From Deltaproteobacteria bacterium (GTDB taxonomy: Bacteria; Desulfobacterota; Binatia; Binatales; Binataceae), in contig DAHVFB010000007.1 in the NCBI GenBank assembly GCA_027317185.1, positions 1,064 through 65,063 on the forward strand: a stretch of 64,000 bases of DNA, given 5' to 3'. This document shows, in pieces, positions 6,410-22,937 of this stretch. A model generated the notes under the pieces. That model was not told the origin of the DNA. It made no database searches and saw nothing but the letters and a program-made list of their open reading frames with translations. Position 1 is the first letter of the stretch; every line of letters begins with the position of its first letter. The position numbers and the translations under genes were made by a program.

Positions 6410-7690
6410 ATGTTCACCGGAAGGGCTAAACAGATCACGATCTTTATCGGCGAAACGGATCAATACCATCACCAGGCGCTGTATATGGCGATTATCGAGA
6501 TGCTCCGGCGCGAGGGCTGCAGCGGCGCGACTGCGACTCGCGGCGTGGCGGGCTTTGGGGCCTCATCGTTGATTCACACCGCGATGATTCTTCGACTGTC
6601 CTTCGATCAGCCACTCGTGATCACAGTCGTGGACCGCCCCGAGCGGATCGATCGCGTCCTCGCTCCTCTGCGGGAAATGGCTCCGAACGCCCTGATCACG
6701 GTTCAGGAAGTGGAAGTCGTCCAATCGGGTGCTCCCTTCAAAGAGGGACTGCCCGATTTGAAAGTTTCCGAAGTGATGCGTCGTGAAGTCGCCACGGTGC
6801 ATCCCGACAGCGCAATTACCCAAGTTGTCGAATTGTTGCTGGATAAGGACTTCACGGCGGTGCCGGTGATCGACGATGAGGGCAGGGTTGTCGGGATGGT
6901 GAGCGACAACGACCTGCTGACGCGCGGCGGGATGAACGTCACGATCAGTCTGAAAAAGGCGACCGATTTGGATTATGTGCGCGAGCTTCACGAGTCTCTT
7001 GAGAACGCGAACCGCAAAGTGTCGGAAGTGATGACGCGCGAGGTGGTGACGACTACTCCCGACGCCATTCTCGGACGAGCGGCCAGACTGATGGTCGAAA
7101 AACATCTCAAGCGGCTACCGGTCGTGAACAGCGATGGAAGGCTGGTGGGCATCCTGGGCCGCCTGGATGTTTTGAACACGATTGCGGCGGTCCATCTGCC
7201 GGAGTGGCATCCCGAGGCGCATGCCAACGGCGCACAGTCTACGGTGGCCGGCGTGATGACCCGCGAAGTTCCCACCGTCCACGAAACTGCGACAGTTGAA
7301 GAAATTTTCGATCTGCTCGTTTCATCGTCGCACAAGCGGGTAGTCGTGGTGGACGACAAAAGGCATGTTGTTGGAATTGTCGCCGACTCTGATTTGATTT
7401 CGAAGGTGAGCCGTGAGAGCTGGCCGGGGATAATGGAAATCCTCATCTCCAAGGTTCCAATCGGCCGAGTCAGCGCAGAAGCGCGCAAGCACATCCAGAA
7501 GTTGCGTGCCCGCTCCGCAAAGGAACTGATGACGCGCAACGTCGTCACGGTTCGCGAGAAGATGCCCGTGGCGAGCGCCTTGGCGTTGTCTGCGGAAAAG
7601 CGGGTTAAGCGGCTGCCGGTGGTGGACGCTGAAGGCGAGCTGGTAGGAATCGTCGGACGCACGGAAATGATGCGCGCACTGCTGGCCTAA
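6410..7690 (+). CDS. DUF190 (PII-like, COG1993) domain fused to four CBS domains
   Basis: N-terminal ITIFIGETDQYHHQALYMAIIEMLRREGCSGATATRGVAGFG is DUF190-like. It is followed by two CBS pairs (repeated h..VhT..P..VVDD.G.hVGIVS..DL). Confidence 0.85.
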   Translation: MFTGRAKQITIFIGETDQYHHQALYMAIIEMLRREGCSGATATRGVAGFGASSLIHTAMILRLSFDQPLVITVVDRPERIDRVLAPLREMAPNALITVQEVEVVQSGAPFKEGLPDLKVSEVMRREVATVHPDSAITQVVELLLDKDFTAVPVIDDEGRVVGMVSDNDLLTRGGMNVTISLKKATDLDYVRELHESLENANRKVSEVMTREVVTTTPDAILGRAARLMVEKHLKRLPVVNSDGRLVGILGRLDVLNTIAAVHLPEWHPEAHANGAQSTVAGVMTREVPTVHETATVEEIFDLLVSSSHKRVVVVDDKRHVVGIVADSDLISKVSRESWPGIMEILISKVPIGRVSAEARKHIQKLRARSAKELMTRNVVTVREKMPVASALALSAEKRVKRLPVVDAEGELVGIVGRTEMMRALLA

Positions 7691-7715
7691 ACCGCGACAT
7701 GGAGGAACTTGGAGA

Positions 7716-8090
7716 GTGCTGGGAGTTTTGTTTGTCGCGATTGGCGGGGCCATCGGGTCGGCGACTCGTTATCTGGTGGGCGGATGGTTTGCATCCCGGT
7801 TTGGCCCGTCGTTTCCGTACGGAACCTTCGTGATCAATGTGACAGGGAGCTTCATTATTGGACTTTTCCTCGCATTTGCTCAGGAGCGGGTTTCGCTCAG
7901 CCCTTATTGGCGACTGTTCTTTGCGGTGGGCGTTGTCGGAGGCTATACTACCTTTTCGACCTTCGAGTATGAGTCGGTTCGATTGCTTCAGGATGGGGAG
8001 ATGCTGCTGGGGTCAGTTTATCTGGTAGGGAGCGTTGCGATGGGCGCTATCGGCGCCGTGGCCGGAATCACGCTTGGCAGTTGGATTTGA
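7716..8090 (+). CDS. crcB: fluoride ion channel CrcB/Fluc
   Basis: 124 aa, 4-TM. Motifs GGAIGSATRY and GGYTTFSTF are typical of CrcB. Confidence 0.9.
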   Translation: MLGVLFVAIGGAIGSATRYLVGGWFASRFGPSFPYGTFVINVTGSFIIGLFLAFAQERVSLSPYWRLFFAVGVVGGYTTFSTFEYESVRLLQDGEMLLGSVYLVGSVAMGAIGAVAGITLGSWI

Positions 8091-11432: not shown

Positions 11433-13022
11433 ATGCCAGCCGAACGGAAGCAAGTGCTCGATGAGGTTGCGGCTCGTTGGAACGGCAGAGTTCAATTGAG
11501 CCCGGAAGACGGTTCGGAATCGGCTTATCGGCTGGAGTGTGAACCTGCGGAGCTATCGGAGGTTTGCAATTGGTTGTTCTCCGATCTGCATTACAGTTTC
11601 GGCGGTCTGGTAGTCGAGCAACTAACGCGGTGGGAACTGCGGTACGTATTCTATGGCGGGCCGGGAGCGGGCTGGTTGCATGTGCTGACTCATCTAGCTC
11701 CGTCGGATTATCGGGTGCCCAGCGTCAGCAGGCTCGTGCATGCGGCTGACTGGCACGAACGCGAGGTCGAGGACCTGTTCGGGCTGGTCTTCGAGGGGCA
11801 TCCGCGCCTCGGCGATTTCGTACTTCACGACGACGCCTGGCATGAGGGCGTCGCTCCGATGCGTAAGAGCTTCGATGGGCGCCAACCGGTGACGCATCGT
11901 GCGCCCGACCAGAACTGGAAGCCGCGCCAGATCGTCGAGGAGGCGGGAGCGTTCTTGATGCCGATCGGACCCATCTATGCCACCGCAACCGGGCCGGTGC
12001 ACTTTCAGCTTGAAACCGTGGGCGAAGATGTAATCCGCGTGCAGCCGCGCCTCTTCTATGCATACCGCGGGCTGGAAAAGATCGCCGAGGGGCGCCGGGC
12101 TGAGGACGTTCTACTGATAGCGGAGCGTATCAGCGCAACATCAGCATTCGCTCATTCACTCGCGGTCTGTCAGGCCGTGGAGCGTATCTGCCACATGGAG
12201 GTGCCTCCGAGAGCGCGCGCGCTAAGAATATTCGTTGCGGAGTTCGAACGCCTTCGGCATCACGTCGCGGCGATCGAGGGAATCTGTGAATCGACCGGCC
12301 TTGCGGTTGCAGCCGCCCAGGCCTCGATTCTCGAAGAGGACCTGCTGCGACTTTCCTGTGTGCTGACGGGGCATCGTTATCTCTTCGGCCTCGGAACCTT
12401 CGGTGGCTTGACGATCAACCTTGACGATTCGGCCTGCAACCGAGCCGCAGCACAGGTGCGAGAAGTGGCCGAAAAGCTCTCGCGCCTTGAGCGGATGTTG
12501 AGCATATCCAGCAGTTTTCTAGACCGACTGGAGGAGGTCGGCCACGTTTCCGCAGGCGAGGCCGGCGACTTCGGGCTGGTCGGACCGATCGCCCGCGCCT
12601 CAGGTGTCTCGCGGGATATGAGGAAGGCCCAGCCATATTCCGGCTATGACCAGATCGAGTTTGAGGTTCCCCACGAATCGGAAGGAGACGGATACGCACG
12701 GTTGCGTATGTTCTTTCGAGAGGCGGCGCAATCAGTGCGGATCATCTCGACGGTTGGCCAAGCGGTTCCTGGGGGGCAGGTTCGCGCGCCGGAAGTCAGC
12801 TTCAGGCCGGGTGCCGCGCTGGGCTGGGTCGAAGCACCGCGCGGGGCCGCGTTGCATTGGATTCGCCTCGGCGAGGACGGCGTGGTGGATCGCTACCGAA
12901 TCATCACGCCGTCATTCGCGAACTGGCATGGCTTCAGGCTCGCGGCCGAAAACTTTGCGTTTCAGGATTTTCCGATAATCCTCGCGACGTTCGCGCTCTC
13001 AGTTCACGAGAACGATCGCTAG
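11433..13022 (+). CDS. fused NuoC-NuoD-like 'large subunit' (HycE/EchE-like) lacking NiFe-binding cysteines
   Basis: N-terminal NuoC-like 150 aa plus a NuoD/[NiFe]-large-subunit fold. The L1 motif position reads RISATSAFAH and the L2 position TPSFANWH, so both Cys pairs are replaced. Confidence 0.85.
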   Translation: MPAERKQVLDEVAARWNGRVQLSPEDGSESAYRLECEPAELSEVCNWLFSDLHYSFGGLVVEQLTRWELRYVFYGGPGAGWLHVLTHLAPSDYRVPSVSRLVHAADWHEREVEDLFGLVFEGHPRLGDFVLHDDAWHEGVAPMRKSFDGRQPVTHRAPDQNWKPRQIVEEAGAFLMPIGPIYATATGPVHFQLETVGEDVIRVQPRLFYAYRGLEKIAEGRRAEDVLLIAERISATSAFAHSLAVCQAVERICHMEVPPRARALRIFVAEFERLRHHVAAIEGICESTGLAVAAAQASILEEDLLRLSCVLTGHRYLFGLGTFGGLTINLDDSACNRAAAQVREVAEKLSRLERMLSISSSFLDRLEEVGHVSAGEAGDFGLVGPIARASGVSRDMRKAQPYSGYDQIEFEVPHESEGDGYARLRMFFREAAQSVRIISTVGQAVPGGQVRAPEVSFRPGAALGWVEAPRGAALHWIRLGEDGVVDRYRIITPSFANWHGFRLAAENFAFQDFPIILATFALSVHENDR

Positions 13023-13040: not shown

Positions 13041-13811
13041 ATGAGCCAATGGGTAATCAAGGGTCTCAGAACCGGCGTTAAGAGCACCCGCTACCCGCGC
13101 GCCGAGGAAACTGCGGCTGGAATTTCGCCGGGCCTGCCGACTGCCGCGACACTCCCCTTGGAAGTGGCCCAGTCACTCGTGGCGCGTTGTCCGGCCGACG
13201 CTCTTGAACTGGCTCCGGCCGGCGTGGACGTGAACCTGCGCCGATGTATTCACTGCTTCCGCTGCGTGCGTGGCACGAACAGTCCGCTCGGATGGGAACA
13301 CAGCTACGAATGGGCCACCGCAGTTTCGGGTGGCAATGATCAAAAGCGGCAGTTCGGTCCGGCGTTCGATCGATCGGTTCACATCCTCGTGGTCGATACA
13401 GGCGACTGCGGGGCGTGCCTGAACGAGGTCCGACAGCTCAACAATCCCTACTACAACATGCATCGCCTCGGCTTCTTTCTCACTCCAACGCCACGTCATG
13501 CCGATGTGTTGCTGGTAGTCGGAGCGCTGACCGACCACATGCGAGTGCCGCTGCGCAAGGCCTACGACGCGATGCCCAGCCCGAAACGGGTCGTAGCCGT
13601 TGGGGCCTGCGCGCTATCGGGAGGAATCTTTGGCCGCAGCTTTATGTGCGCAGGCGGAGTGGCCGAGCTGCTCCCGGTCGATGTCGAGGTGCCGGGCGAT
13701 CCGCCACCGCCACTCGCGATTCTGCACGGACTGTTGGTTGCGGTTGGCCGGAAACCCCCGGCCCGTTTGCATCGCGCAGTGAGCGACTCGGTGGGGAACG
13801 CGTCGGGATGA
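13041..13811 (+). CDS. NuoB/HycG-like small subunit with N-terminal ferredoxin-like CxxCxxC segment
   Basis: C-terminal HILVVDTGDCGAC .. GACALSGG .. VPGDPPPP follows the NuoB pattern, with the 4th Cys replaced by Asp. The N-terminus has CIHCFRC. Confidence 0.8.
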   Translation: MSQWVIKGLRTGVKSTRYPRAEETAAGISPGLPTAATLPLEVAQSLVARCPADALELAPAGVDVNLRRCIHCFRCVRGTNSPLGWEHSYEWATAVSGGNDQKRQFGPAFDRSVHILVVDTGDCGACLNEVRQLNNPYYNMHRLGFFLTPTPRHADVLLVVGALTDHMRVPLRKAYDAMPSPKRVVAVGACALSGGIFGRSFMCAGGVAELLPVDVEVPGDPPPPLAILHGLLVAVGRKPPARLHRAVSDSVGNASG

Positions 13812-15958
13812 CCTCCATGGGCCTGCTACTGGTCATTATCGTGGCGCTGTGCGGCGCCGGCGTGGTTTTGCCGCTGGCCATTGAAGAACGGCGAACGCCA
13901 GCGATCGTGGGCTGGTTCGGAGCGTGCGCGGCGGGCGTCTTGCTCTGCTTCAGCGGAGCCTCACTGTTTGCGGGCGCGCCGTTTCACGCGACGCTGTGGA
14001 CCATTCCATCGCTGGCGACGCTCACGCTGTCACTCGACCGGCTCTCTGCGCTGTTTCTTTTTATTTCAGGCCTGGTCCTGCTTCCCGGTTCGATTTTCGC
14101 GGCTGGCAATCTCCATAGGTACATGGGCCGTTACAGTCTTAGGGCCTTTAGCGTTCTATATTTCGCGCTCTATGCGACGCTGGTGCTGATTCCCCTGTCG
14201 GCCGACGCGGTCTCCTTTCTGATGTTGTGGGAATCGATGTCGATCCTGATCTACCTGCTGGTGAACTACGAAGACGAAATGGAAGAACACCTGCGGGCGG
14301 GATACTTGATGCTGGCGGTTGGCGAGGCCGGCACACTCCTCATCGCGCTGGCGTTCATAGTACTCGCCAATAATGGCTCGCTTGAATTCGTCGCGATGGA
14401 GGCTGGGGGAGGTGCGCTGGGCGAATACGCGCGATGGGCTGTCTTCCTGCTCGCGTTCTTCGGCTTCGGAGTCAAGGCCGGTCTCATCCCGGTTAATTTC
14501 TGGCTCCCGCAGGCGTACGCCGCGGCGCCGGATGCTTTCGTCCCGGTGCTGGCTGGAGCAACCTTGAACCTCGGTCTTTACGGAATCGTCAGAGTGAACG
14601 GTGACCTGCTGCCGGTTGCGGCGATCGGCCCCGGCCTCGTCGCGCTCATCGTCGGCAGCGTTACCGCGCTGCTCGGCATTCTCTACGCGACGACGCAGAG
14701 CGATCTCAAGACCATGCTCGCGCACAGTTCGATCGAGAATGCCGGCATTATCACAGCGGCGCTCGGCGCGGGGTTTATCTTCGTGGCCTTGGCGCATCCG
14801 TCGCTTGCGGCGATCGCGTTTGCGGCGGCCTTCTACCACATGGTGAACCATTCGATTTACAAGGCCCTGTTGTTCTTCGCGACCGGCGCGGTTGATTCGA
14901 ATACCGGAACCCGAAACATCGACCGGCTGGGAGGCTTGATAAAGGCGATGCCTCTCACCGCGTTGTTCTTTCTGGTTGGCGCACTGTCGATCGCGGCGCT
15001 GCCGCCGTTCAACGGATTCGTTAGTGAATGGCTCACGTTGCAGGCGATGCTGCAAAGCGCGGGACTTGCTTCGACTGGCGTGAAAATCGTCTTTGCGCTT
15101 TGCGGCGCGATCCTCGCCCTGACGGCGGCGCTTGCGGTGACCTGCTTCGTTAAGGCGTTCGCGATGAGTTTCCTCGGGATGCCACGGTCTGATTCGGCGG
15201 CGCAGGCCCGGTCGGCGCGAGCCTCGGCGACTATTCCGATGGCATTCCTCGCCGTGCTCTGCTTCATCCTGGGAGTGACTCCGACCTACGTCATTCCGGT
15301 GCTCGACGGAGCTATCGCGCCGATCGCGGAGCAGGCGCGCGCCGCCGACGCCCTGGTGCCACCCTTCTTTGCTGGCAACGTCCATCACGGCGAGCTGCCC
15401 GCATCCTTCGTCGCGGATTTTCACGCGCTTGGCGCGCAAGTCGGGCAGAGCGTAATGCCGGGACGTGGACTCATTGTGATGCATCGCGGCGGCGCGGCCA
15501 ATCCGGTGGTGTTCGCGATGTCCACCACGTACATGGCCGTGGTCCTGGCGCTGATGCTGCTCGCTACCTACGTCGTGTTTCGATTGATTGTCGCGCGAAG
15601 CCGCGCCGTCGAACGGCGCGCGGTCTGGGATGGTGGAATCCGACGCTTGCTGCCGGAGATGACCTACACCGGTACCGGATTCTCGAACCCGGTGCGCGTC
15701 ATCTTCGAAGCGGTATTCAGGCCCACAACCGTGGAAGACACCCGGGAGACGGTCGGCAAGCATTTCCGGGCCGCGATTCGGCGCACGCACGGCGAAAACC
15801 ATGTGCTGGACCGCTTGGTGCTCAATCCGATCGCGGACGCCGCGCTATGGGTATCAAACGGTTTTGCCCGGATGCATCATGGCTTCCTCAATGCCTACGT
15901 TCTCTACGGGCTCATCGCGCTGATTGTGGCGCTTCTGATCGCGAGGTTCTCCTCATGA
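13808..15958 (+). CDS. Mrp/NuoL-type antiporter-like subunit (HyfB/NuoL-like)
   Basis: About 717 aa polytopic protein with FWLPQAYAAAPDAFVPV and HSSIENAGII motifs. Start taken at MTSMGLL (the ATGA overlap with the upstream gene), not the long Arg-rich N-extension in the ORF track. Confidence 0.85.
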   Translation: MTSMGLLLVIIVALCGAGVVLPLAIEERRTPAIVGWFGACAAGVLLCFSGASLFAGAPFHATLWTIPSLATLTLSLDRLSALFLFISGLVLLPGSIFAAGNLHRYMGRYSLRAFSVLYFALYATLVLIPLSADAVSFLMLWESMSILIYLLVNYEDEMEEHLRAGYLMLAVGEAGTLLIALAFIVLANNGSLEFVAMEAGGGALGEYARWAVFLLAFFGFGVKAGLIPVNFWLPQAYAAAPDAFVPVLAGATLNLGLYGIVRVNGDLLPVAAIGPGLVALIVGSVTALLGILYATTQSDLKTMLAHSSIENAGIITAALGAGFIFVALAHPSLAAIAFAAAFYHMVNHSIYKALLFFATGAVDSNTGTRNIDRLGGLIKAMPLTALFFLVGALSIAALPPFNGFVSEWLTLQAMLQSAGLASTGVKIVFALCGAILALTAALAVTCFVKAFAMSFLGMPRSDSAAQARSARASATIPMAFLAVLCFILGVTPTYVIPVLDGAIAPIAEQARAADALVPPFFAGNVHHGELPASFVADFHALGAQVGQSVMPGRGLIVMHRGGAANPVVFAMSTTYMAVVLALMLLATYVVFRLIVARSRAVERRAVWDGGIRRLLPEMTYTGTGFSNPVRVIFEAVFRPTTVEDTRETVGKHFRAAIRRTHGENHVLDRLVLNPIADAALWVSNGFARMHHGFLNAYVLYGLIALIVALLIARFSS

Positions 15959-15971
15959 AGCTTGACCGGCG

Positions 15972-16961
15972 GTGCGGCTAGACTTAGCTTATGGGTACAG
16001 GTGGTGGAGTCCACCAGGAACCGCCATCCGGCCAATGACTCCTGCAGCGGGTAGAGACCCGCGGCGGGAGGACTCCTTCCGACTCTCGGGTCTCGAGACC
16101 GCTCCGACGATTGTTGATCGGAGACCGGAAGTGCTCGAGCGCCTGACAAAGAATTTCCGAGAACTCCTCAAGCAGTTCGGTGGCGCCTCGTGCTCCCTGT
16201 GCGCCGTATTGAAACGGCGGGAGGAAGAGGAAATCGAGCGAGTGCGCGCTAGCAGTGCCTCGGCCAGAGTCTTGTGCGGCCCGCATCTCGAGATGGTGCT
16301 GTTCGCGGTTGCCAGCCCGATGACAAGGGCGGGAGTGACTCGCAGTGCGATCGAATCGGTCCTCGCCGACCGATCCGATTGCGACGCGTGCTCAAGGCTC
16401 AGCCAAATCGAGCTTAGGCTTGCACGCGCGATCCGCCGTTTGGACGGCGGGATGCGCTTCAGGAAGGCGCTCGAATCGGCGCCGCTTTTCTGCCGCAAGC
16501 ATGCGGATATCGTCGCGCAACAGGATGTCGCGGTTAACTTTGCACAGGTTCAGAGGGCGAAGCTCCTCCACTTACGCGATGCGCTCGCTCAGGCCGAGTT
16601 GCGTAACGGCGCAGAGATGGAATCGCTGATATTGACGGCGCTCACCTATCTGGCCGCTCCTCTTCAGCAAGAACCGCCGCCGGTGGAAGTCCACGATTCC
16701 TCCGATTGCACGGAGAACGAGGCGGCGGAATTCGAGCGATGGGAGGAAGCACGCCAGTTCAAGCATCTGGCCGACCTCGAGAGCGAAGCGGCAGGCCTGC
16801 GCTATCGCAACGCCGTGCTTTCTGAAGAGAACCGCAGACTCAAGCTCGCCCATGTCGCTGGCGAAGCGATCCGGCGCGACCTTGAGCACGATCGAGCACA
16901 GCTCCTCGCCGCGGCGAAGGAACAGGATGCAAAACCGCTGAAGTTTTCGAGCCGACATTAA
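15972..16961 (+). CDS. hypothetical protein with two CxxC-(26-31 aa)-CxxH modules and a C-terminal coiled coil
   Basis: CSLC..CGPH and CDAC..CRKH. First gene of the overlapping-stop operon. Start codon uncertain. Confidence 0.5.
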   Translation: MRLDLAYGYRWWSPPGTAIRPMTPAAGRDPRREDSFRLSGLETAPTIVDRRPEVLERLTKNFRELLKQFGGASCSLCAVLKRREEEEIERVRASSASARVLCGPHLEMVLFAVASPMTRAGVTRSAIESVLADRSDCDACSRLSQIELRLARAIRRLDGGMRFRKALESAPLFCRKHADIVAQQDVAVNFAQVQRAKLLHLRDALAQAELRNGAEMESLILTALTYLAAPLQQEPPPVEVHDSSDCTENEAAEFERWEEARQFKHLADLESEAAGLRYRNAVLSEENRRLKLAHVAGEAIRRDLEHDRAQLLAAAKEQDAKPLKFSSRH

Positions 16962-16979
16962 AAAGAGCCAATCACTCAT

Positions 16980-17675
16980 ATGCGAATCTGCATCATTTCA
17001 GACCTGCACGCGAACCTCGAAGCTCTTTCCGCCCTGCCACGCGACTATGATGAGTTGTGGGTATTGGGTGACCTGGTGAACTATGGTCCTGATCCGGCCG
17101 AAACGATCGACTTTGTGCGATCTCACGCGTCAACTGTCATCCGCGGAAACCACGACAACGCGGTGGGATTTGGAACGAATTGTGGGTGCTCGCCTCGATT
17201 CCGCACTATGGCCGAAGCGACGCGCCAATACACGACGTCGGTCCTGAGTGCTAGAGACAAACAGTTTCTTAGGGAGCTACCGACATGCGCCTGCCGCCAG
17301 GTCGACGGGCGGATATTCTTTCTCTGCCACGCGACTCCATCGGATCTGCTCTATGAGTACCGCGCGCCCGACTCGCCGCTGTGGGCGCGGGAAGAGGAGT
17401 CCAGTTCGGGAGCGAATGTCATCCTGGCGGGACACACACATCTGCCGTTCGCGCGCGTCTTTGGCGAACGTATCGTCGCTAATCCAGGAAGCCTTGGACA
17501 ATCGAAAGCAGGAGACCCGCGCGCCCGCTACGCCGTCTGGCAGGATGACCATATTGAGCTAAAGGCCTACGAATATCCCGTCGACAAGACGGTCGAGAAA
17601 ATCTTGGCGCTTCCGTTACCCGAGGAAGTAAAGCACGACCTCGTCTGCGTGCTTCGTACGGGGACAGCGCCGTGA
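16980..17675 (+). CDS. metallophosphoesterase (calcineurin-like, YfcE/MJ0936-type)
   Basis: DLH .. GDLVNYGP .. GNHD .. GHTH motifs. Confidence 0.85.
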   Translation: MRICIISDLHANLEALSALPRDYDELWVLGDLVNYGPDPAETIDFVRSHASTVIRGNHDNAVGFGTNCGCSPRFRTMAEATRQYTTSVLSARDKQFLRELPTCACRQVDGRIFFLCHATPSDLLYEYRAPDSPLWAREEESSSGANVILAGHTHLPFARVFGERIVANPGSLGQSKAGDPRARYAVWQDDHIELKAYEYPVDKTVEKILALPLPEEVKHDLVCVLRTGTAP

Positions 17676-18667
17676 GTACCAATAGTCATCGAAACACCGC
17701 TCCGGAGCCGGCTGCGATCACGGCTGACGCCGTAAAACTAGGCGATCTGAGACATCACCTCCGATCGCTGCACGATGGAGACGGCGCGGTGATTGAGGCA
17801 ATCGGCATCGGCGCTCCAGCGATTCCGGTCCTGCGGGAACTCCTGTTTGAGCGAGATCCCAGCGGGATTTTCGAGCCGCGGATGCGTGCCGCTCAGGCGC
17901 TGGCCGCGCTCAGAGCCACGAGCGAATTGCAGGAGTTTGTCCGCGAATGGAAATCGGCTTCGGACCCAGTCGAGCGGTTTGGAGACGAAGCGGTGCTGGG
18001 AGCCGTCGCCAGATTTTTGGGCGCCACGATGGAAGAAGACGTCTATGACATCCTGATGGCGATCGGCCGAAAGTATCCGGTGCCGGGCGTTATCGAAGCC
18101 TTAGGGCGATATGGCCGTTCGGAATCGGTTTCAATGATGCTCAGAGCCCTTGCCGATGACATCAGCCGGACCGCGGCGGAACAGGCATTAAGGATCCTCG
18201 GCGAGGCGGGAGTTCCCGCGCTCATCGAGGCCGCCATGCGGCCGGTCGCGAATTTTTGGGGCAGAGAAATTCCATCCAGTGTGCTTAGGCGGCGCAGCGC
18301 GTTAATGCTGCTGCTAGAATTTGGTGTTACGCGCGATACTTGGGACCGCATCCGCAGGTTGGTATCAGACTCAGACGACGAAATTTCGGTCCGTGCATGC
18401 GCAATTGGATTGACGGCGGGCATTCGTGCAGACCAGCGCGACTGCGCGTGGCGGATGTTGGAGTTACTGCGCGGGGTCGCGTGGCCGCTTCATCAGGAAA
18501 TCGAAAACTGCCTGATAGACAATTTCGCAATCGCTCGGGAGTTCGTCGATCAGGCTATCAAAGGACCGACGGACGACATCGCGGATGACTTCGCGCGCGC
18601 CCGATTCAAGCGATCACTCCGTCGGATCGCGGCAAGGGCGTTAACCAGACAGGAGCCCGGGAGTTGA
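17672..18667 (+). CDS. HEAT-repeat (PBS-lyase-like) protein
   Basis: Repeated approx. 30-aa helical repeats with (A/V)(A/R)xALG motifs. Overlaps its neighbours by 4 nt. Confidence 0.65.
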   Translation: MSTNSHRNTAPEPAAITADAVKLGDLRHHLRSLHDGDGAVIEAIGIGAPAIPVLRELLFERDPSGIFEPRMRAAQALAALRATSELQEFVREWKSASDPVERFGDEAVLGAVARFLGATMEEDVYDILMAIGRKYPVPGVIEALGRYGRSESVSMMLRALADDISRTAAEQALRILGEAGVPALIEAAMRPVANFWGREIPSSVLRRRSALMLLLEFGVTRDTWDRIRRLVSDSDDEISVRACAIGLTAGIRADQRDCAWRMLELLRGVAWPLHQEIENCLIDNFAIAREFVDQAIKGPTDDIADDFARARFKRSLRRIAARALTRQEPGS

Positions 18668-21165
18668 CCTCGATGCCGGAAGCAGCGCCGCAGCTCTCCA
18701 ATATCGCGGGTGACGCACTCCGCCACTATGACCATCTCAAACTCGAGATTGCGGCGATCGGGCAAGCGGCGATGCTTCAGTGCGCGAAGGATAAGGACGA
18801 GGAAGGCGAACGCGCTTTCCAGCGGTTGCTGGCGCGATTGGCGGAGGACCGCTTCAACCTTGCTGTGGTGGGTCCTTTCAGCCGGGGTAAGAGCAGCCTG
18901 ATGAACGCAATTCTCGGCTTCGATGGTTTGCCGACCGGCCTTCTTCCGCACACTTCCGTTATCACGACGGTCAGTTATGGACCACACGAACGAGTTCTGG
19001 TTCGCTGCGAGGGGTGGTCGCTTCCCCAGGAGATTCGACTGGATGGGCTCGCGGAGTACGTTACTGAACGCGGAAATCCGGGAAATCGGCGGCGGGTGAT
19101 GCAGGCGGAGATCGAACTGCCCGCTGAGATTCTCCGCCACGGCCTCCATTTCATCGATACGCCCGGTGTTGGTTCCGCGATCGTTGCAAACACCGAGACA
19201 ACGGACCGATTCCTCCCGGAGCTTGATGCGGCGATATTCGTCTCCAGTTTCGATTTTCCGCTCAGCGAGATCGATATCGAGTTTTTCCGAAAGGTTCGCG
19301 GGGCCGTCGGCGTCGTGTTCTTGGTGCTGAACAAACTTGATCTGGTCTCGGAGTCAGAGGCAGAAGAAGTAGTGAGATTCGTCCGCGAACGGCTCGACCG
19401 TGAACTGGGTATTGGGCGCTACGCGCTTTTCGCGGTTTCAGCCAAGCGCGGGTTAGAGGCGAGACTGCATGGAGACTCGAACGCTCTGTCCCAGTCGGGG
19501 TTGACCGAATTGGAAGCGGCGCTGGCGGCGTTCATGGCCGGCGATAAGACGCGCCAGTTGGCCGTGCGCGTGATGGACCGCCTCGTAACCCTGCTGCAAC
19601 GCGAGGTCACGCATGGCGGGTTCTCACTTGATCCAAAGCGGTCGCCTGGGCAGGTCTCCCAAGCCCTCGCCGGGTTCGATGAAAAGACGGCCGTCCTCAA
19701 AGCGCGGCGCGCGGAGCTCGTGAACCGCCTTGAAACGCTTGGCAATGATGCGTTGCGTGCCGTTGAGCGTCGTCTCGACTCCGCGTTCACGAACCTCAAG
19801 CAAAGCGCAGCTCATAAATTCACGCCGGACTTTCTCGCCGGTCGAATATTCTCCAGGCCGAATGCCTTCGATGCGTTCGCGCGCAATGTGCCGGCGTTTT
19901 GTGAGCGCGCTCTCACGCGCGAGTTACGAGTTTACGAGGCAGCCCTGAATGAGCATTTGGACCGGAGCGCCGGTCCGGTACGCTCGGAAATCCTTGCGCT
20001 ACCCGACGAACTCTTCGATATCGCGACGAATGGTAACGGAGGCGCTCGCGAGTTATCAGAGCTCTCCGCACAAGAGCGCGAAGCCGCACCACCATCGGTG
20101 GAAATCGCAGGGATCGCACGCGTCGAGTGGAGACCGCGGCTGCCGTGGTGGATATACCTGGCGCCACTGCGCTGGTCTTCGGCGGCGATGAAAAGAACAT
20201 TTGCCGTTGCGCTCGGCGAGTTGCTCGCGCAGTACCGATCCCGCATCGATGCGTCGATCCGCATCGACATGAACGAATATGCGGAGAAACTGGGCCGCGA
20301 GATTGAAAAAACAATCGACGGTCGAGCGGCTCGCGTCAGGAAATTACTCGCGTCGGGAGGTTTCGCACAGAATCGCAAGGTGTTCGAAGCGCTGCTGGAT
20401 CGGGCCAGAGATCTGCGTGGACAATTTGAAGATAAGGGAGACTGCCGATCGCGGTCTGAGGAGGGCGACCTCGGTGGCTCCGACGCAGTCGCTGCAAGTT
20501 CCGTGGCTTCCGTCGGCAGTGCGCATGGGTGTCCCGTCTGTCGTGCAGTCATCCGGACAGTTTTCGATTACCTGAGCAAGCTGCAATATGAATTGAGCAT
20601 CGACGCCGACGCTCAACACGAACACGCCGAAAGCGGCGGCTTCTGTTCAGTACACACGTGGATTTACTCCAGTATGACCTCGCCGGTAGCAATCTCGCGG
20701 GCCTATCCGCCACTGCTTGACTCGCTTGCCACGCGGCTGAAACGTGCCGCGCGTGATGCGGTCTCGGTCGAAGAACTGAACCGGAAAATCCGCGATCTAT
20801 CGCCTTCGCCGGAGAGCTGTAGAGTCTGCGCGGTCGCGCATCACGCGACCGATCAAGCGGTCACGGATATCGTCCGGATTCTCGACCCAGACGGACGCAG
20901 CGAGGCGCCGACCTTATGCTTGCCTCACTTGGCGATTGCACTTCAGCTCGGATCAGATTTGAAGAGCGCCCATCTGCTATCCACACAATGTGCGCGCGCT
21001 CTGCTCCGGGATGCCGATGACATGCGCCATCACGCTCTGAAGCACGACGCGATCCGGCGAGGCCTGATGACGACGGACGAGCGTGATGCGCATCAGGCCG
21101 GCCTCAGAAGATTGGCCGGCAACATGCTGCTGACATTGCCACCCCGTGGTGATGATCGGCTTTGA
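18664..21165 (+). CDS. bacterial dynamin-like GTPase with C-terminal double Cys3His module
   Basis: G1 GPFSRGKSSLMNAILG, G3 FIDTPGVGS, G4 LNKLD. C-terminal CPVC..CSVH and CRVC..CLPH. Confidence 0.8.
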   Translation: MTSMPEAAPQLSNIAGDALRHYDHLKLEIAAIGQAAMLQCAKDKDEEGERAFQRLLARLAEDRFNLAVVGPFSRGKSSLMNAILGFDGLPTGLLPHTSVITTVSYGPHERVLVRCEGWSLPQEIRLDGLAEYVTERGNPGNRRRVMQAEIELPAEILRHGLHFIDTPGVGSAIVANTETTDRFLPELDAAIFVSSFDFPLSEIDIEFFRKVRGAVGVVFLVLNKLDLVSESEAEEVVRFVRERLDRELGIGRYALFAVSAKRGLEARLHGDSNALSQSGLTELEAALAAFMAGDKTRQLAVRVMDRLVTLLQREVTHGGFSLDPKRSPGQVSQALAGFDEKTAVLKARRAELVNRLETLGNDALRAVERRLDSAFTNLKQSAAHKFTPDFLAGRIFSRPNAFDAFARNVPAFCERALTRELRVYEAALNEHLDRSAGPVRSEILALPDELFDIATNGNGGARELSELSAQEREAAPPSVEIAGIARVEWRPRLPWWIYLAPLRWSSAAMKRTFAVALGELLAQYRSRIDASIRIDMNEYAEKLGREIEKTIDGRAARVRKLLASGGFAQNRKVFEALLDRARDLRGQFEDKGDCRSRSEEGDLGGSDAVAASSVASVGSAHGCPVCRAVIRTVFDYLSKLQYELSIDADAQHEHAESGGFCSVHTWIYSSMTSPVAISRAYPPLLDSLATRLKRAARDAVSVEELNRKIRDLSPSPESCRVCAVAHHATDQAVTDIVRILDPDGRSEAPTLCLPHLAIALQLGSDLKSAHLLSTQCARALLRDADDMRHHALKHDAIRRGLMTTDERDAHQAGLRRLAGNMLLTLPPRGDDRL

Positions 21166-21215: not shown

Positions 21216-22424
21216 ATGGATGGAAGACCGGCGCCGGCTGTTCGGAAAATCGAAACCGCCGACTCGCGTGCGACGTGGTTTAACCGCAACGTCGCGGGTA
21301 TGTGCCTGGCGAGTCTGCTCTCCGATCTGGGACATGAGATGGCAACCTCGATCCTGCCGCTGTTCCTGACCGCGATTGGAGCATCGCCTTCGGCGCTGGG
21401 GATTATTGAGGGCGCGTCGGATGGAGCCGCGACGTTCGCCAAACTGATTGGCGGCAGGATCGCAGACCGCAAGGGCTTGCGCCAAAAGGTTGCAAGTCTC
21501 GGATACCTGGTCACCGGTCTCGCGACAGGATCATTCGCGGCGGCGATGACTTGGTTTGAACTACTGATCGCGCGGACTGTGGGATGGTTTGGCAGGGGGA
21601 CACGCGGGCCGTCGCGCGACAATCTTCTGGTTGATTCGGTACCCCACGCGAAGGTCGGCGCGGCGCTGGGGCTTCACCGAACCGCCGACACTCTGGGAGC
21701 GATCTTGGGGCCGCTGACCGCGATGTTCCTTCTCCATCGAATCGGATTCCGCAACATCTTCCTGCTGAGTCTCGTGCCTGGCGTGTTCGCCGCCGCGGCG
21801 TTCTACTTCCTTGTGCGCGAACCCGATGGCGCAAACTTGGCACAAGCGCCGGAGTTTCGAGGCTGGCACGCGGCGCTGCCCTCCTCCTTCCGGACGTTTC
21901 TCGCGACGATTCTACTGTTTGGAATCGGAGACTTCGCGCACAGCATGCTGGTGCTTCGGGCTGCACAACTGCTCGGATCGACACCCAAGGCAATGAGCAT
22001 CGCGATCGGTTTATACGTCATTCACAACACGGCGCATGCGGCTTTGTCTTATCCGATAGGAGTTACAGGCGACCGCATCGAGCGTCGGCGCCTGCTCGCG
22101 GTTGCTTATGTGATCGCGGCGGTCGCCGCGGCTGGCTTCGCCATCGGACCACACAGCGTAGGTGCGCTGGTGGTGCTCTTCATTCTCGAAGGCGCCGTAA
22201 TGGCTGCTCAGGAAACGCTCGATTCGGCCGTGGCGACAGATCTTCTGCCAGCCGACTCGCGCGGCGCGGGATTCGGCGTAATGAATGCCACAAGCGGCGT
22301 CGGCGACTTCGTGTCGAGCATTGTCGTCGGATTTCTTTGGACTGGCATATCCGGCCATGCCGCATTTGCGTATAGCGCAACCTTGAGCTTGCTGGCCGCG
22401 GCATTGATGACCTGGGGGATCTGA
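21216..22424 (+). CDS. MFS transporter
   Basis: 12-TM profile with D-R-x-G-R-R/K-like loop motifs (GGRIADRKG). Confidence 0.85.
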   Translation: MDGRPAPAVRKIETADSRATWFNRNVAGMCLASLLSDLGHEMATSILPLFLTAIGASPSALGIIEGASDGAATFAKLIGGRIADRKGLRQKVASLGYLVTGLATGSFAAAMTWFELLIARTVGWFGRGTRGPSRDNLLVDSVPHAKVGAALGLHRTADTLGAILGPLTAMFLLHRIGFRNIFLLSLVPGVFAAAAFYFLVREPDGANLAQAPEFRGWHAALPSSFRTFLATILLFGIGDFAHSMLVLRAAQLLGSTPKAMSIAIGLYVIHNTAHAALSYPIGVTGDRIERRRLLAVAYVIAAVAAAGFAIGPHSVGALVVLFILEGAVMAAQETLDSAVATDLLPADSRGAGFGVMNATSGVGDFVSSIVVGFLWTGISGHAAFAYSATLSLLAAALMTWGI

Positions 22425-22442
22425 GAGAGAGGCCTGGAACTG

Positions 22443-22937
22443 GTGATAAGGAGAATGAATTCCTTTTGCTGGAACTGCTTCCAAATGATCGATAGCGACG
22501 ACACGCTGTGCCCCTATTGCGCGCGGCAGCAACACCCGGTACCGGGCGATCTTCGCGAGAAGCTGATTCGAGCGCTTAAGCATCCAATAGGAGAGACACG
22601 AAGACGGGCGTCATTCGTACTTGGAGAGAAGCGAATGAGCGAAGCCGCGACCAACCTTATCGACCTCGTCGAGCACGATCCCGACCTCTATGTGGCCGCT
22701 GAAGCAGTTACGGCGTTGGAAAAAATCGGGACTCCGGACGCGCTGTATGGAATTGAGCGTGCGGCTTCGCACGAATCATTCGTCGTCCGGGAACGTGCCG
22801 TCGAAGCGCTCGTGGCGGCCGGCGGTGAGTGGGCGGATGCAGCGAGCGAAATAGCAGAAAACGACCCCAGTCCGTCGGTCAGAGAAGCCGCGCAAAGCAA
22901 CCCTGCGAAAAAGGACCCCTTGGCTCGCCATCTGTGA
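22443..22937 (+). CDS. zinc-ribbon plus HEAT-repeat protein
   Basis: N-terminal CWNC..CPYC. HEAT-like repeats (E.RRRA.FVLG, AAEAVTALEKIG, VRERAVEAL). Confidence 0.6.
   Translation: MIRRMNSFCWNCFQMIDSDDTLCPYCARQQHPVPGDLREKLIRALKHPIGETRRRASFVLGEKRMSEAATNLIDLVEHDPDLYVAAEAVTALEKIGTPDALYGIERAASHESFVVRERAVEALVAAGGEWADAASEIAENDPSPSVREAAQSNPAKKDPLARHL

Follow-up and report, generated by a model that had tools for sequence, protein, structure and literature searches.

Described bacterial dynamins include Nostoc BDLP1, Bacillus subtilis DynA, Escherichia coli LeoA, Campylobacter jejuni DLP1/2 and Mycobacterium tuberculosis IniA. Bacterial dynamins generally act in heterotypic assemblies, the genes of a pair being neighbours (PMC6104087). 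Searches of the literature turned up no bacterial dynamin described as having a Cys/His metal domain, and zinc is unmentioned in PMC6104087. The second family of relevance, DUF6062 (PF19538), is a Pfam family without assigned function whose classical members are stand-alone proteins of ~210-260 amino acids (aa), e.g. in Chloroflexi and Firmicutes; no paper mentioning either DUF6062 or PF19538 was found in the searchable literature. Here, a 64,000-nucleotide stretch (the window) of contig DAHVFB010000007.1 (assembly GCA_027317185.1), from a bacterium of the Binataceae (Binatia), was analyzed. It encodes a dynamin-like GTPase of 833 aa and, upstream in the same gene run, a protein of 276 aa (the small protein). 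The two proteins carry divergent copies of DUF6062, which on balance probably act as a metal-clamped (most likely Zn) helical assembly or adaptor domain of a dynamin system. Both families were already known; the domain architecture and the gene neighbourhood are new.

Four CxxC...CxxH modules in two proteins

A sequence-only reading of the locus had proposed four CxxC...CxxH modules, two in the small protein and two in the C-terminal tail of the GTPase. All four are at the positions claimed (Table 1), and both tail modules lie within the last 215 residues of the GTPase. The common spacing of 26-32 aa assigned to them did not hold, as the gaps range from 24 to 34 aa and are only roughly alike, and the similar helix said to follow each module was recovered for small-protein module 1 and tail module 2 (C.PHL..AL) only. 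Translation of the window in six frames gives 262 open reading frames (ORFs) of 100 aa or more, and these two proteins alone show the pattern. When the residues of each sequence were shuffled 20,000 times, two or more modules arose at a frequency of 1e-4 for the small protein and 5e-5 for the dynamin-like protein.

The putative ligands are conserved. All eight small-protein ligands were invariant in every covering sequence of 24 orthologues (down to 37% identity), one N-terminally truncated orthologue being without the first Cys. The eight ligands of the tail were likewise invariant across 12 tails, with identities as low as 41%, and virtually all of ~75 further tail-type metagenome ORFs had them. 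In these ORFs, the module-1 gap was constant at 34 aa and the module-2 gap varied from 26 to 32 aa. Non-conserved cysteines in orthologues had been named beforehand as the observation that would count against a shared domain; the Cys and His residues were instead invariant.

Direct BLASTP similarity between the two window proteins was weak (E 0.008, 61 columns), as would be expected if the motifs were a coincidence of Cys and His residues with no common origin. A chance origin of the motifs is excluded by the shuffle test, and the invariant ligands and the profile-profile homology presented below also argue against it; the probability of this explanation is negligible.

Both domains as members of the DUF6062 superfamily

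The proposed Pfam scan did find DUF6062 in both proteins, but with scores below the gathering cut-off of 27 bits (13.2-13.9 bits for the small protein and 17.6-22.4 bits for the dynamin tail). PF19538 was matched by 22 of the 24 small-protein orthologues (best 1.4e-6) and by all 12 tails, and some orthologues (P0017 and P0044) have a precomputed PF19538 match. For profile-profile comparison, an alignment of 11 two-module members, all matching PF19538 (best 4e-83), served as the bona fide DUF6062 reference. Against this reference, hhalign returned a probability of 99.0% for the small-protein domain (E 2.2e-18, 149 columns) and 98.9% for the dynamin tails (E 1.8e-17, 198 columns). Both comparisons were in register, with module 1 on module 1 and module 2 on module 2. 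When the window tail and three related tails were aligned with classical DUF6062, the eight ligands were the sole invariant columns. The tail furthermore keeps the C-terminal helix motif of the family, (F)I(R)K-x-D(Y)R...E(R)D..W.RA, as HALKHDAIRRGLMTTDERDAHQAGL, with K, D and D in nearly invariant columns; the small protein lacks the motif and has a coiled coil in its place. Judged by profile-profile homology and motifs, both window domains belong to the DUF6062 superfamily, and the proposal of homologous modules in a duplicated domain common to the small protein and the GTPase tail was borne out by way of DUF6062.

Module 1 and module 2 within DUF6062 match each other in hhalign (97.7%, E 2e-12), which marks the domain, by profile comparison, as an ancient internal duplication. 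Homology lies at the level of the two-module domain rather than the single module. Pairwise alignment of the modules gave homology through DUF6062 and a direct likeness of small-protein module 1 to tail module 2 (59-93% probability), but no direct similarity elsewhere. A direct or recent paralogy of the window copies was considered and rejected, since they share only weak single-module similarity in BLASTP and hhalign (59%, E 9e-5 and one module pair in the latter) and each is much closer to classical DUF6062. For the same reason their shared ancestry rests on the link through DUF6062. The paralogy suggested earlier therefore stands as distant shared ancestry and not as recent duplication, and the window copies are best classed, from these alignments, as two divergent copies of one two-module domain in different subfamilies.

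Like classical DUF6062, the window copies have two CxxC...CxxH modules. Module gaps in the classical proteins are ~33-34 aa, whereas module 1 of the small protein is shortened to 24 aa. Unlike the stand-alone classical proteins, the window copies are fused, either C-terminally to a dynamin GTPase (833 aa) or N-terminally to a long coiled coil (276 aa). The small-protein domain, used as a profile against 1.84 billion representatives, retrieved 88 proteins only, the distant members of which were classical DUF6062 proteins with two modules or proteins of 400-540 aa with four. One retrieved protein (P0103; 1221 aa, repetitive, 10 matched stretches) was set aside, as it looks like a low-complexity artefact. 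A word-indexed protein search with the tail yielded 4 proteins, compared to 356 tail-type stretches from a degenerate-pattern scan of metagenomes with the tail profile; for divergent domains, family size taken from a word-indexed search alone can thus be badly misleading. A marginal PADLOC match to the candidate defence family PDC-S70 (E 0.0018) was also seen over tail module 1 (window 20527-20769, dynamin aa 622-702); PDC-S70 may be another Cys-rich relative, or the match may be noise.

The dynamin-like GTPase

By its GTPase domain the 833-aa protein is placed in the dynamin superfamily. In common with the bacterial dynamins named above, it has a Dynamin_N domain with G1, G3 and G4 motifs (Table 1), gives weak matches to the LeoA, LeoBC and DynA models, and in its long form has a ~300-aa helical region with a conserved aromatic/hydrophobic stretch. 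It differs from them in ending in a putative Cys/His metal-site domain. The aromatic stretch (aa 490-504) is a candidate membrane-binding paddle. The middle region is kept in full-length orthologues and is absent from one Binatia locus (L010) and from all of the Acidobacterial short forms described below.

No second dynamin gene was found in the 64-kb window, unlike the usual side-by-side pair, which leaves room for a non-dynamin partner. A second, more distant dynamin-like gene does occur a few kb upstream on the opposite strand in some Binatia-type loci, namely L017 (8215-8865, -), L019 (1540-2169, -) and L037 (9-320, -), with 36-42% identity in the GTPase domain. The anti-phage system Eleos (LeoA/LeoBC) was considered as an identity for the locus and rejected: the matches are partial and at the GTPase level only (LeoA 1.3e-15 over aa 159-381; LeoBC 8e-9), the window has no second dynamin, and the neighbours are without defence matches to PADLOC models.

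Predicted structure and metal site

AlphaFold2 models of the small protein (mean predicted local distance difference test score, pLDDT, of 86.6) and of the tail (mean pLDDT 84.2, predicted template modelling score, pTM, of 0.76) are all-helical and have one common topology, in which each CxxC marks the N-terminus of a long helix and each CxxH that of a subsequent helix. Foldseek searches against the PDB gave no match at E <= 1e-3 for either model, and no sequence relative of the small protein or the tail was found in the PDB. With this topology, each half of the domain would place a CxxC knuckle and a CxxH knuckle at the starts of successive helices, and its three Cys and single His would most likely hold one metal ion. 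Zn(II) is the likeliest metal, and the site would be structural, clamping the helices together. Metal binding by both domains is supported as probable by the invariant ligands and the models, and the suggestion of a Zn-binding domain carries over in the form of a ligand-invariant, probably metal-binding domain.

All-helical domains in which Cys and His residues at helix ends clamp the helices include the TAZ domains of CBP/p300 and the ZAS anti-sigma domains, which serve in protein-protein interaction or redox switching. Their ligand order and spacing (HCCC in TAZ, HxxxCxxC in ZAS) are unlike those of the window domains. The Rad50 zinc hook resembles the window proteins in having a CxxC near long helices or a coiled coil and offers a precedent for metal-mediated dimerisation. 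The hidden Markov model match to it was marginal only (E 0.057), and the hook has its CxxC at the coiled-coil apex with Zn shared between two chains, whereas each window module supplies four ligands from one chain, making an intramolecular metal site the simpler reading.

A different role for such sites was also weighed, in which the GTPase would be a metallochaperone-like enzyme of metal delivery, with Cys3His sites carrying metal to be passed on to the binuclear metallophosphoesterase or membrane complex encoded nearby. The fusion of a GTPase to two conserved predicted metal sites, with a metalloenzyme gene two upstream and a transporter gene downstream, is what this explanation would lead one to expect. 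It is nevertheless highly improbable, since the GTPase is clearly of dynamin type (Dynamin_N 75-90 bits) and not of the G3E metallochaperone family, the ligands at helix N-termini in confidently modelled regions suggest structural sites, and we know of no precedent.

The small protein has a further predicted feature, a single C-terminal coiled-coil helix of ~76 residues. Its core, LESEAA(S/G)LRYRNAVLSEENRRLKLAH, has many invariant columns and is among the best-conserved parts of the protein. The helix is conserved on all faces (E-S-E-x-A-x-L-R/H-Y-R...E-N-R/K-x-L), and the motif recurs in the distant coiled-coil-type DUF6062 proteins P0096, P0100, P0117 and P0122. Both observations suggest that the helix would have a specific binding partner rather than being a generic coiled coil.

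Gene neighbourhoods in Binatia

The small protein and the GTPase are encoded in a same-strand run of genes consisting of an Ehr/hydrogenase-4-like membrane complex (ending at 15958), the small protein, a metallophosphoesterase, a HEAT-repeat protein, the dynamin-like GTPase, an MFS transporter and a zinc-ribbon HEAT protein. Relatives of the small protein lie in Binatia ('Candidatus Binataceae' and 'Deltaproteobacteria bacterium' metagenome-assembled genomes), in which the order is Ehr, small protein, metallophosphoesterase, HEAT, dynamin with tail, MFS and HEAT. Loci such as L004, L005 and L012 have Ehr, small protein, metallophosphoesterase and MFS, the HEAT and dynamin genes missing together. 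A stalk-less fusion of GTPase and DUF6062 also exists inside Binatia (L010:11826-13628). Genes for a DUF190-CBS protein and a CrcB fluoride channel recur beside the clusters in several arrangements (L001:299-1977, L004:310-1991, L029:1448-3093).

Gene neighbourhoods in metagenomes, short forms and stand-alone DUF6062

Of the tail-type stretches from the metagenome scan, 80 loci were kept, 29 of which had at least 7 kb of upstream flank (the long-flank set). The tail was in the same ORF as a dynamin GTPase at 26 of these 29 loci, in 10 long forms and 16 short forms, and upstream of these fusions a HEAT gene was found at 21/26 and a metallophosphoesterase gene at 21/26. The short forms are ~570 aa long; hardly any sequence separates the GTPase from the tail, and the ~300-aa stalk is missing (e.g. 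L054:8984-10693, L045:8945-10648). They belong to Acidobacteriota and are found throughout the Acidobacterial loci; one is labelled 'dynamin family protein [Terracidiphilus sp.]' at NCBI, JGI labels read 'EngB', and a Pfam scan of one Acidobacterial fusion gave no DUF6062 match at E <= 0.01. Because stalk-less forms (~570-600 aa) occur both in Binatia and throughout the Acidobacterial loci, the ~300-aa middle region is, judged from its distribution, a dispensable or insertable module.

Between the metallophosphoesterase and HEAT genes of L054 lies a gene for a cyclopropane-fatty-acyl-phospholipid-synthase-like methyltransferase (6656-7990, +; Pfam CMAS 2.6e-85), a hint of a connection with membrane lipid modification. 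Many other loci with short forms (e.g. L040, L045, L057) have a similar gap of ~1.4 kb between the metallophosphoesterase and HEAT matches.

Other arrangements bring DUF6062 and dynamins together without fusion. L029 holds a split version, in which a tail-less dynamin of 563 aa abuts a stand-alone DUF6062 protein of 230 aa, together with a HEAT protein, a histidine phosphatase, a coiled-coil-type DUF6062 protein (P0117) and a HEAT-MFS fusion. In L028, a truncated DUF6062 gene, an AAA ATPase, a coiled-coil-type DUF6062 protein (P0100), an enolase and the start of a dynamin gene were found. Operons of the L045 type contain a dynamin, a stand-alone DUF6062 protein of 229 aa, DUF190 and a dynamin. 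Counting the window type, L029 and L028, a coiled-coil-type DUF6062 protein, a second DUF6062 domain and a dynamin-like GTPase co-occur in three gene arrangements. DUF6062 domains are recurrently linked to dynamin-like GTPases, either fused C-terminally or adjacent, in at least two phyla.

The L045 operon is a second cluster type on its contig (14958-20000), comprising a dynamin-like gene (698 aa), DUF6062 (~229 aa, gaps 22 and 33), DUF190 and another dynamin-like gene. Similar second clusters on the same contigs occur in L043, L044, L065, L088, L102, L104 and L109. The small protein was rejected as a counterpart of this Acidobacterial DUF6062 between dynamins, the latter resembling classical DUF6062 (98.4%) more than the small-protein family (89.5%). 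The MFS gene beside one classical DUF6062 gene is not orthologous to the window MFS gene.

A proposed dynamin system with a DUF6062 assembly domain

DUF6062 would serve a dynamin system as its module for protein-protein assembly or as an adaptor, and the conserved core of this system would consist of the metallophosphoesterase, the HEAT protein and the GTPase::DUF6062 fusion. In the stalk-less short forms, the DUF6062 domain would supply the helical domain after the GTPase. The coiled-coil DUF6062 protein of the window would be an optional, lineage-specific accessory. Its docking site may be the GTPase tail or a partner common to both, and it may thereby connect the system with the Ehr-type membrane complex encoded next to it. 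In favour of the heteromeric assembly suggested by the sequence-only reading stands the repeated co-occurrence of coiled-coil-type DUF6062 proteins with a second DUF6062 and a dynamin-like GTPase (window type, L029, L028). Contact of the small protein with the tail itself is doubtful.

Several observations weigh against this picture. The dynamin was present at 9/15 informative genome loci, and the other 6/15 keep the small protein without it. Conversely, at 15 of the 16 long-flank short-form loci the small-type protein was absent while the fusion was present. As each occurs without the other, these counts argue against an obligate pairing of the small protein and the dynamin. Classical DUF6062 genes in Chloroflexi and Firmicutes had no dynamin neighbour and no conserved context, which restricts the dynamin link to some DUF6062 subfamilies. 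The direct similarity of the two window copies is weak, and the proximity of ligands within a module is a prediction from the topology of the models alone.

The six dynamin-less genome loci and the joint absence of HEAT and dynamin in loci such as L004, L005 and L012 are also in line with the two DUF6062 proteins being independent, as is the placement of the window copies in different subfamilies. The small protein would then belong with the Ehr complex and the metallophosphoesterase, the dynamin and HEAT genes would form a separate cassette that is inserted or lost, and the common domain would reflect distant ancestry only. This explanation is rather unlikely, given that in L029 and L028, which represent other lineages and other gene orders, coiled-coil-type DUF6062 proteins again adjoin both a dynamin and a second DUF6062, and that the metallophosphoesterase accompanies the dynamin fusion even where the small protein and Ehr are both missing.

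The position of the Binatia cluster directly after an Ehr-type complex raises a further explanation, in which the Cys3His sites are redox-active or bind iron or an Fe-S cluster, and the domain is a sensor coupling redox state (e.g. from the Ehr-type complex) to GTPase activity or assembly. Some Fe-S and redox-switch proteins have such ligation by three Cys and one His, and a few Acidobacterial loci (L078, L080, L090) have Ehr genes no more than 6-10 kb away. Most short-form loci, however, are without Ehr genes within 10 kb, and classical DUF6062 genes stand in unrelated contexts. Moreover, a CPxC knuckle at the N-terminus of a helix is a typical sign of a mononuclear site. A redox-sensing role is thus improbable.

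With an assembly or adaptor domain preferred, a wider proposal can be put forward tentatively. The metallophosphoesterase, the HEAT protein and the dynamin-GTPase::DUF6062 fusion may form an undescribed conserved system in Binatota and Acidobacteriota, to which the coiled-coil DUF6062 protein was added in Binatia. Assembly or partner recognition would be provided by the metal-clamped domain and not by a second dynamin, the domain could replace the stalk (the 570-600-aa forms being minimal dynamins), and in Binatia the system might serve or organise the Ehr-type respiratory complex.

These results give DUF6062 a concrete context, as a dynamin-associated and probably zinc-clamped helical domain, and bacterial dynamins a new type of C-terminal domain. 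Subfamilies missed by the Pfam model are now defined, among them fusions annotated only as 'dynamin family protein' or 'EngB'. Furthermore, natural pairs of long and stalk-less short forms in one lineage offer a ready comparison of what the stalk is needed for, and the conserved partner set (phosphoesterase and HEAT protein) is directly testable.

Gene order of the window and the upstream complex

Coordinates of the features are collected in Table 1. The start of the small-protein gene at 15972 (a frame of 329 aa) given by the sequence-only reading was not borne out. The most likely start is GTG at 16131, with a GGAG at 16120-16123, 7 nt upstream, and it agrees with the length of the orthologues. 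The metallophosphoesterase stop overlaps the HEAT start (GTGA), and the HEAT stop overlaps the dynamin start (TTGA).

Table 1. Features of the small-protein and dynamin-like GTPase locus (window coordinates; aa, residues of the protein named)
Feature	Position	Strand	Residues or motif	Evidence or model
Small protein, 276 aa: N-terminal DUF6062-like domain and C-terminal long helix (coiled coil)	16131..16961	+	V/M-LERL start	orthologues 275-276 aa
DUF6062-like two-module domain of small protein	16131..16655	+	~aa 1-175	hhalign to bona fide DUF6062
Small-protein module 1	16191..16286	+	CSLC-24 aa-CGPH; C74SLC77...C102GPH105 in 329-aa frame from 15972	predicted: CxxC at N-terminus of helix 23-41, CxxH at N-terminus of helix 51-59
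Small-protein module 2	16380..16502	+	CDAC-33 aa-CRKH; C137DAC140...C174RKH177 in 329-aa frame from 15972	predicted: CxxC at N-terminus of helix 86-105, CxxH at N-terminus of helix 123-133
Small-protein single helix (coiled coil)	16704..16931	+	~76 residues	AlphaFold2 helix 193-268, pLDDT >90 over most
YfcE-like metallophosphoesterase, conserved neighbour	16980..17675	+		Pfam Metallophos_2 5.1e-21
HEAT-repeat protein, conserved neighbour directly upstream of GTPase	17672..18667	+		Pfam HEAT_2 4.7e-8
Dynamin-like GTPase, 833 aa, C-terminal DUF6062 domain	18664..21165	+		Pfam Dynamin_N 6.7e-21, 75.5 bits vs cut-off 27
GTPase motifs			G1 GPFSRGKS 70-77, G3 DTPG 165-168, G4 NKLD 223-226	
Middle region (presumed stalk), ~300 aa	19561..20463	+	conserved aromatic stretch RPRLPWWIYLAPLRW, aa 490-504	
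DUF6062-like two-module GTPase tail, incl. C-terminal K-x-D...ERD helix	20521..21123	+	~aa 620-820	hhalign to bona fide DUF6062
Tail module 1	20530..20655	+	CPVC-34 aa-CSVH; C623PVC626...C661SVH664	predicted: CxxC and CxxH at N-termini of helices 25-47 and 63-72 of tail model
Tail module 2	20818..20928	+	CRVC-29 aa-CLPH; C719RVC722...C752LPH755	predicted: CxxC and CxxH at N-termini of helices 121-140 and 154-163 of tail model
MFS transporter, conserved downstream in Binatia-type loci	21216..22424	+		Pfam MFS_1 1.1e-41, synteny
Small HEAT protein with N-terminal zinc ribbon, often last cluster gene	22443..22937	+		HEAT_2 5.5e-22, weak Zn_ribbon matches, synteny

The HycE/NuoCD-like 'large subunit' of the upstream complex (11433-13022, +) has no CxxC motif whatsoever. 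At the position of the N-terminal Cys pair it reads ERISATSAFAH, and its C-terminal end is ...ATFALSVHENDR. A [NiFe] site requires the N-terminal Cys pair, and from these motifs the subunit is predicted to be unable to bind a NiFe centre. Because of the lack of both CxxC and the N-terminal pair, the complex looks like one of the Ehr type, i.e. hydrogenase-related and non-hydrogenase. The N-terminus of the NuoB-like subunit (13041-13811, +) is extended by ~110 aa that include a CxxCxxC stretch. By eye and not by alignment, the subunit keeps only three of the usual four cluster cysteines and reads GDPPPP in place of the expected Cys-Pro.

Downstream of the GTPase, the MFS and HEAT proteins are encoded by adjacent separate genes in the window (21216-22937) and as one fused protein of 795 aa in L029 (9055-11442, -), a fusion which suggests that the transporter and the HEAT protein work together.

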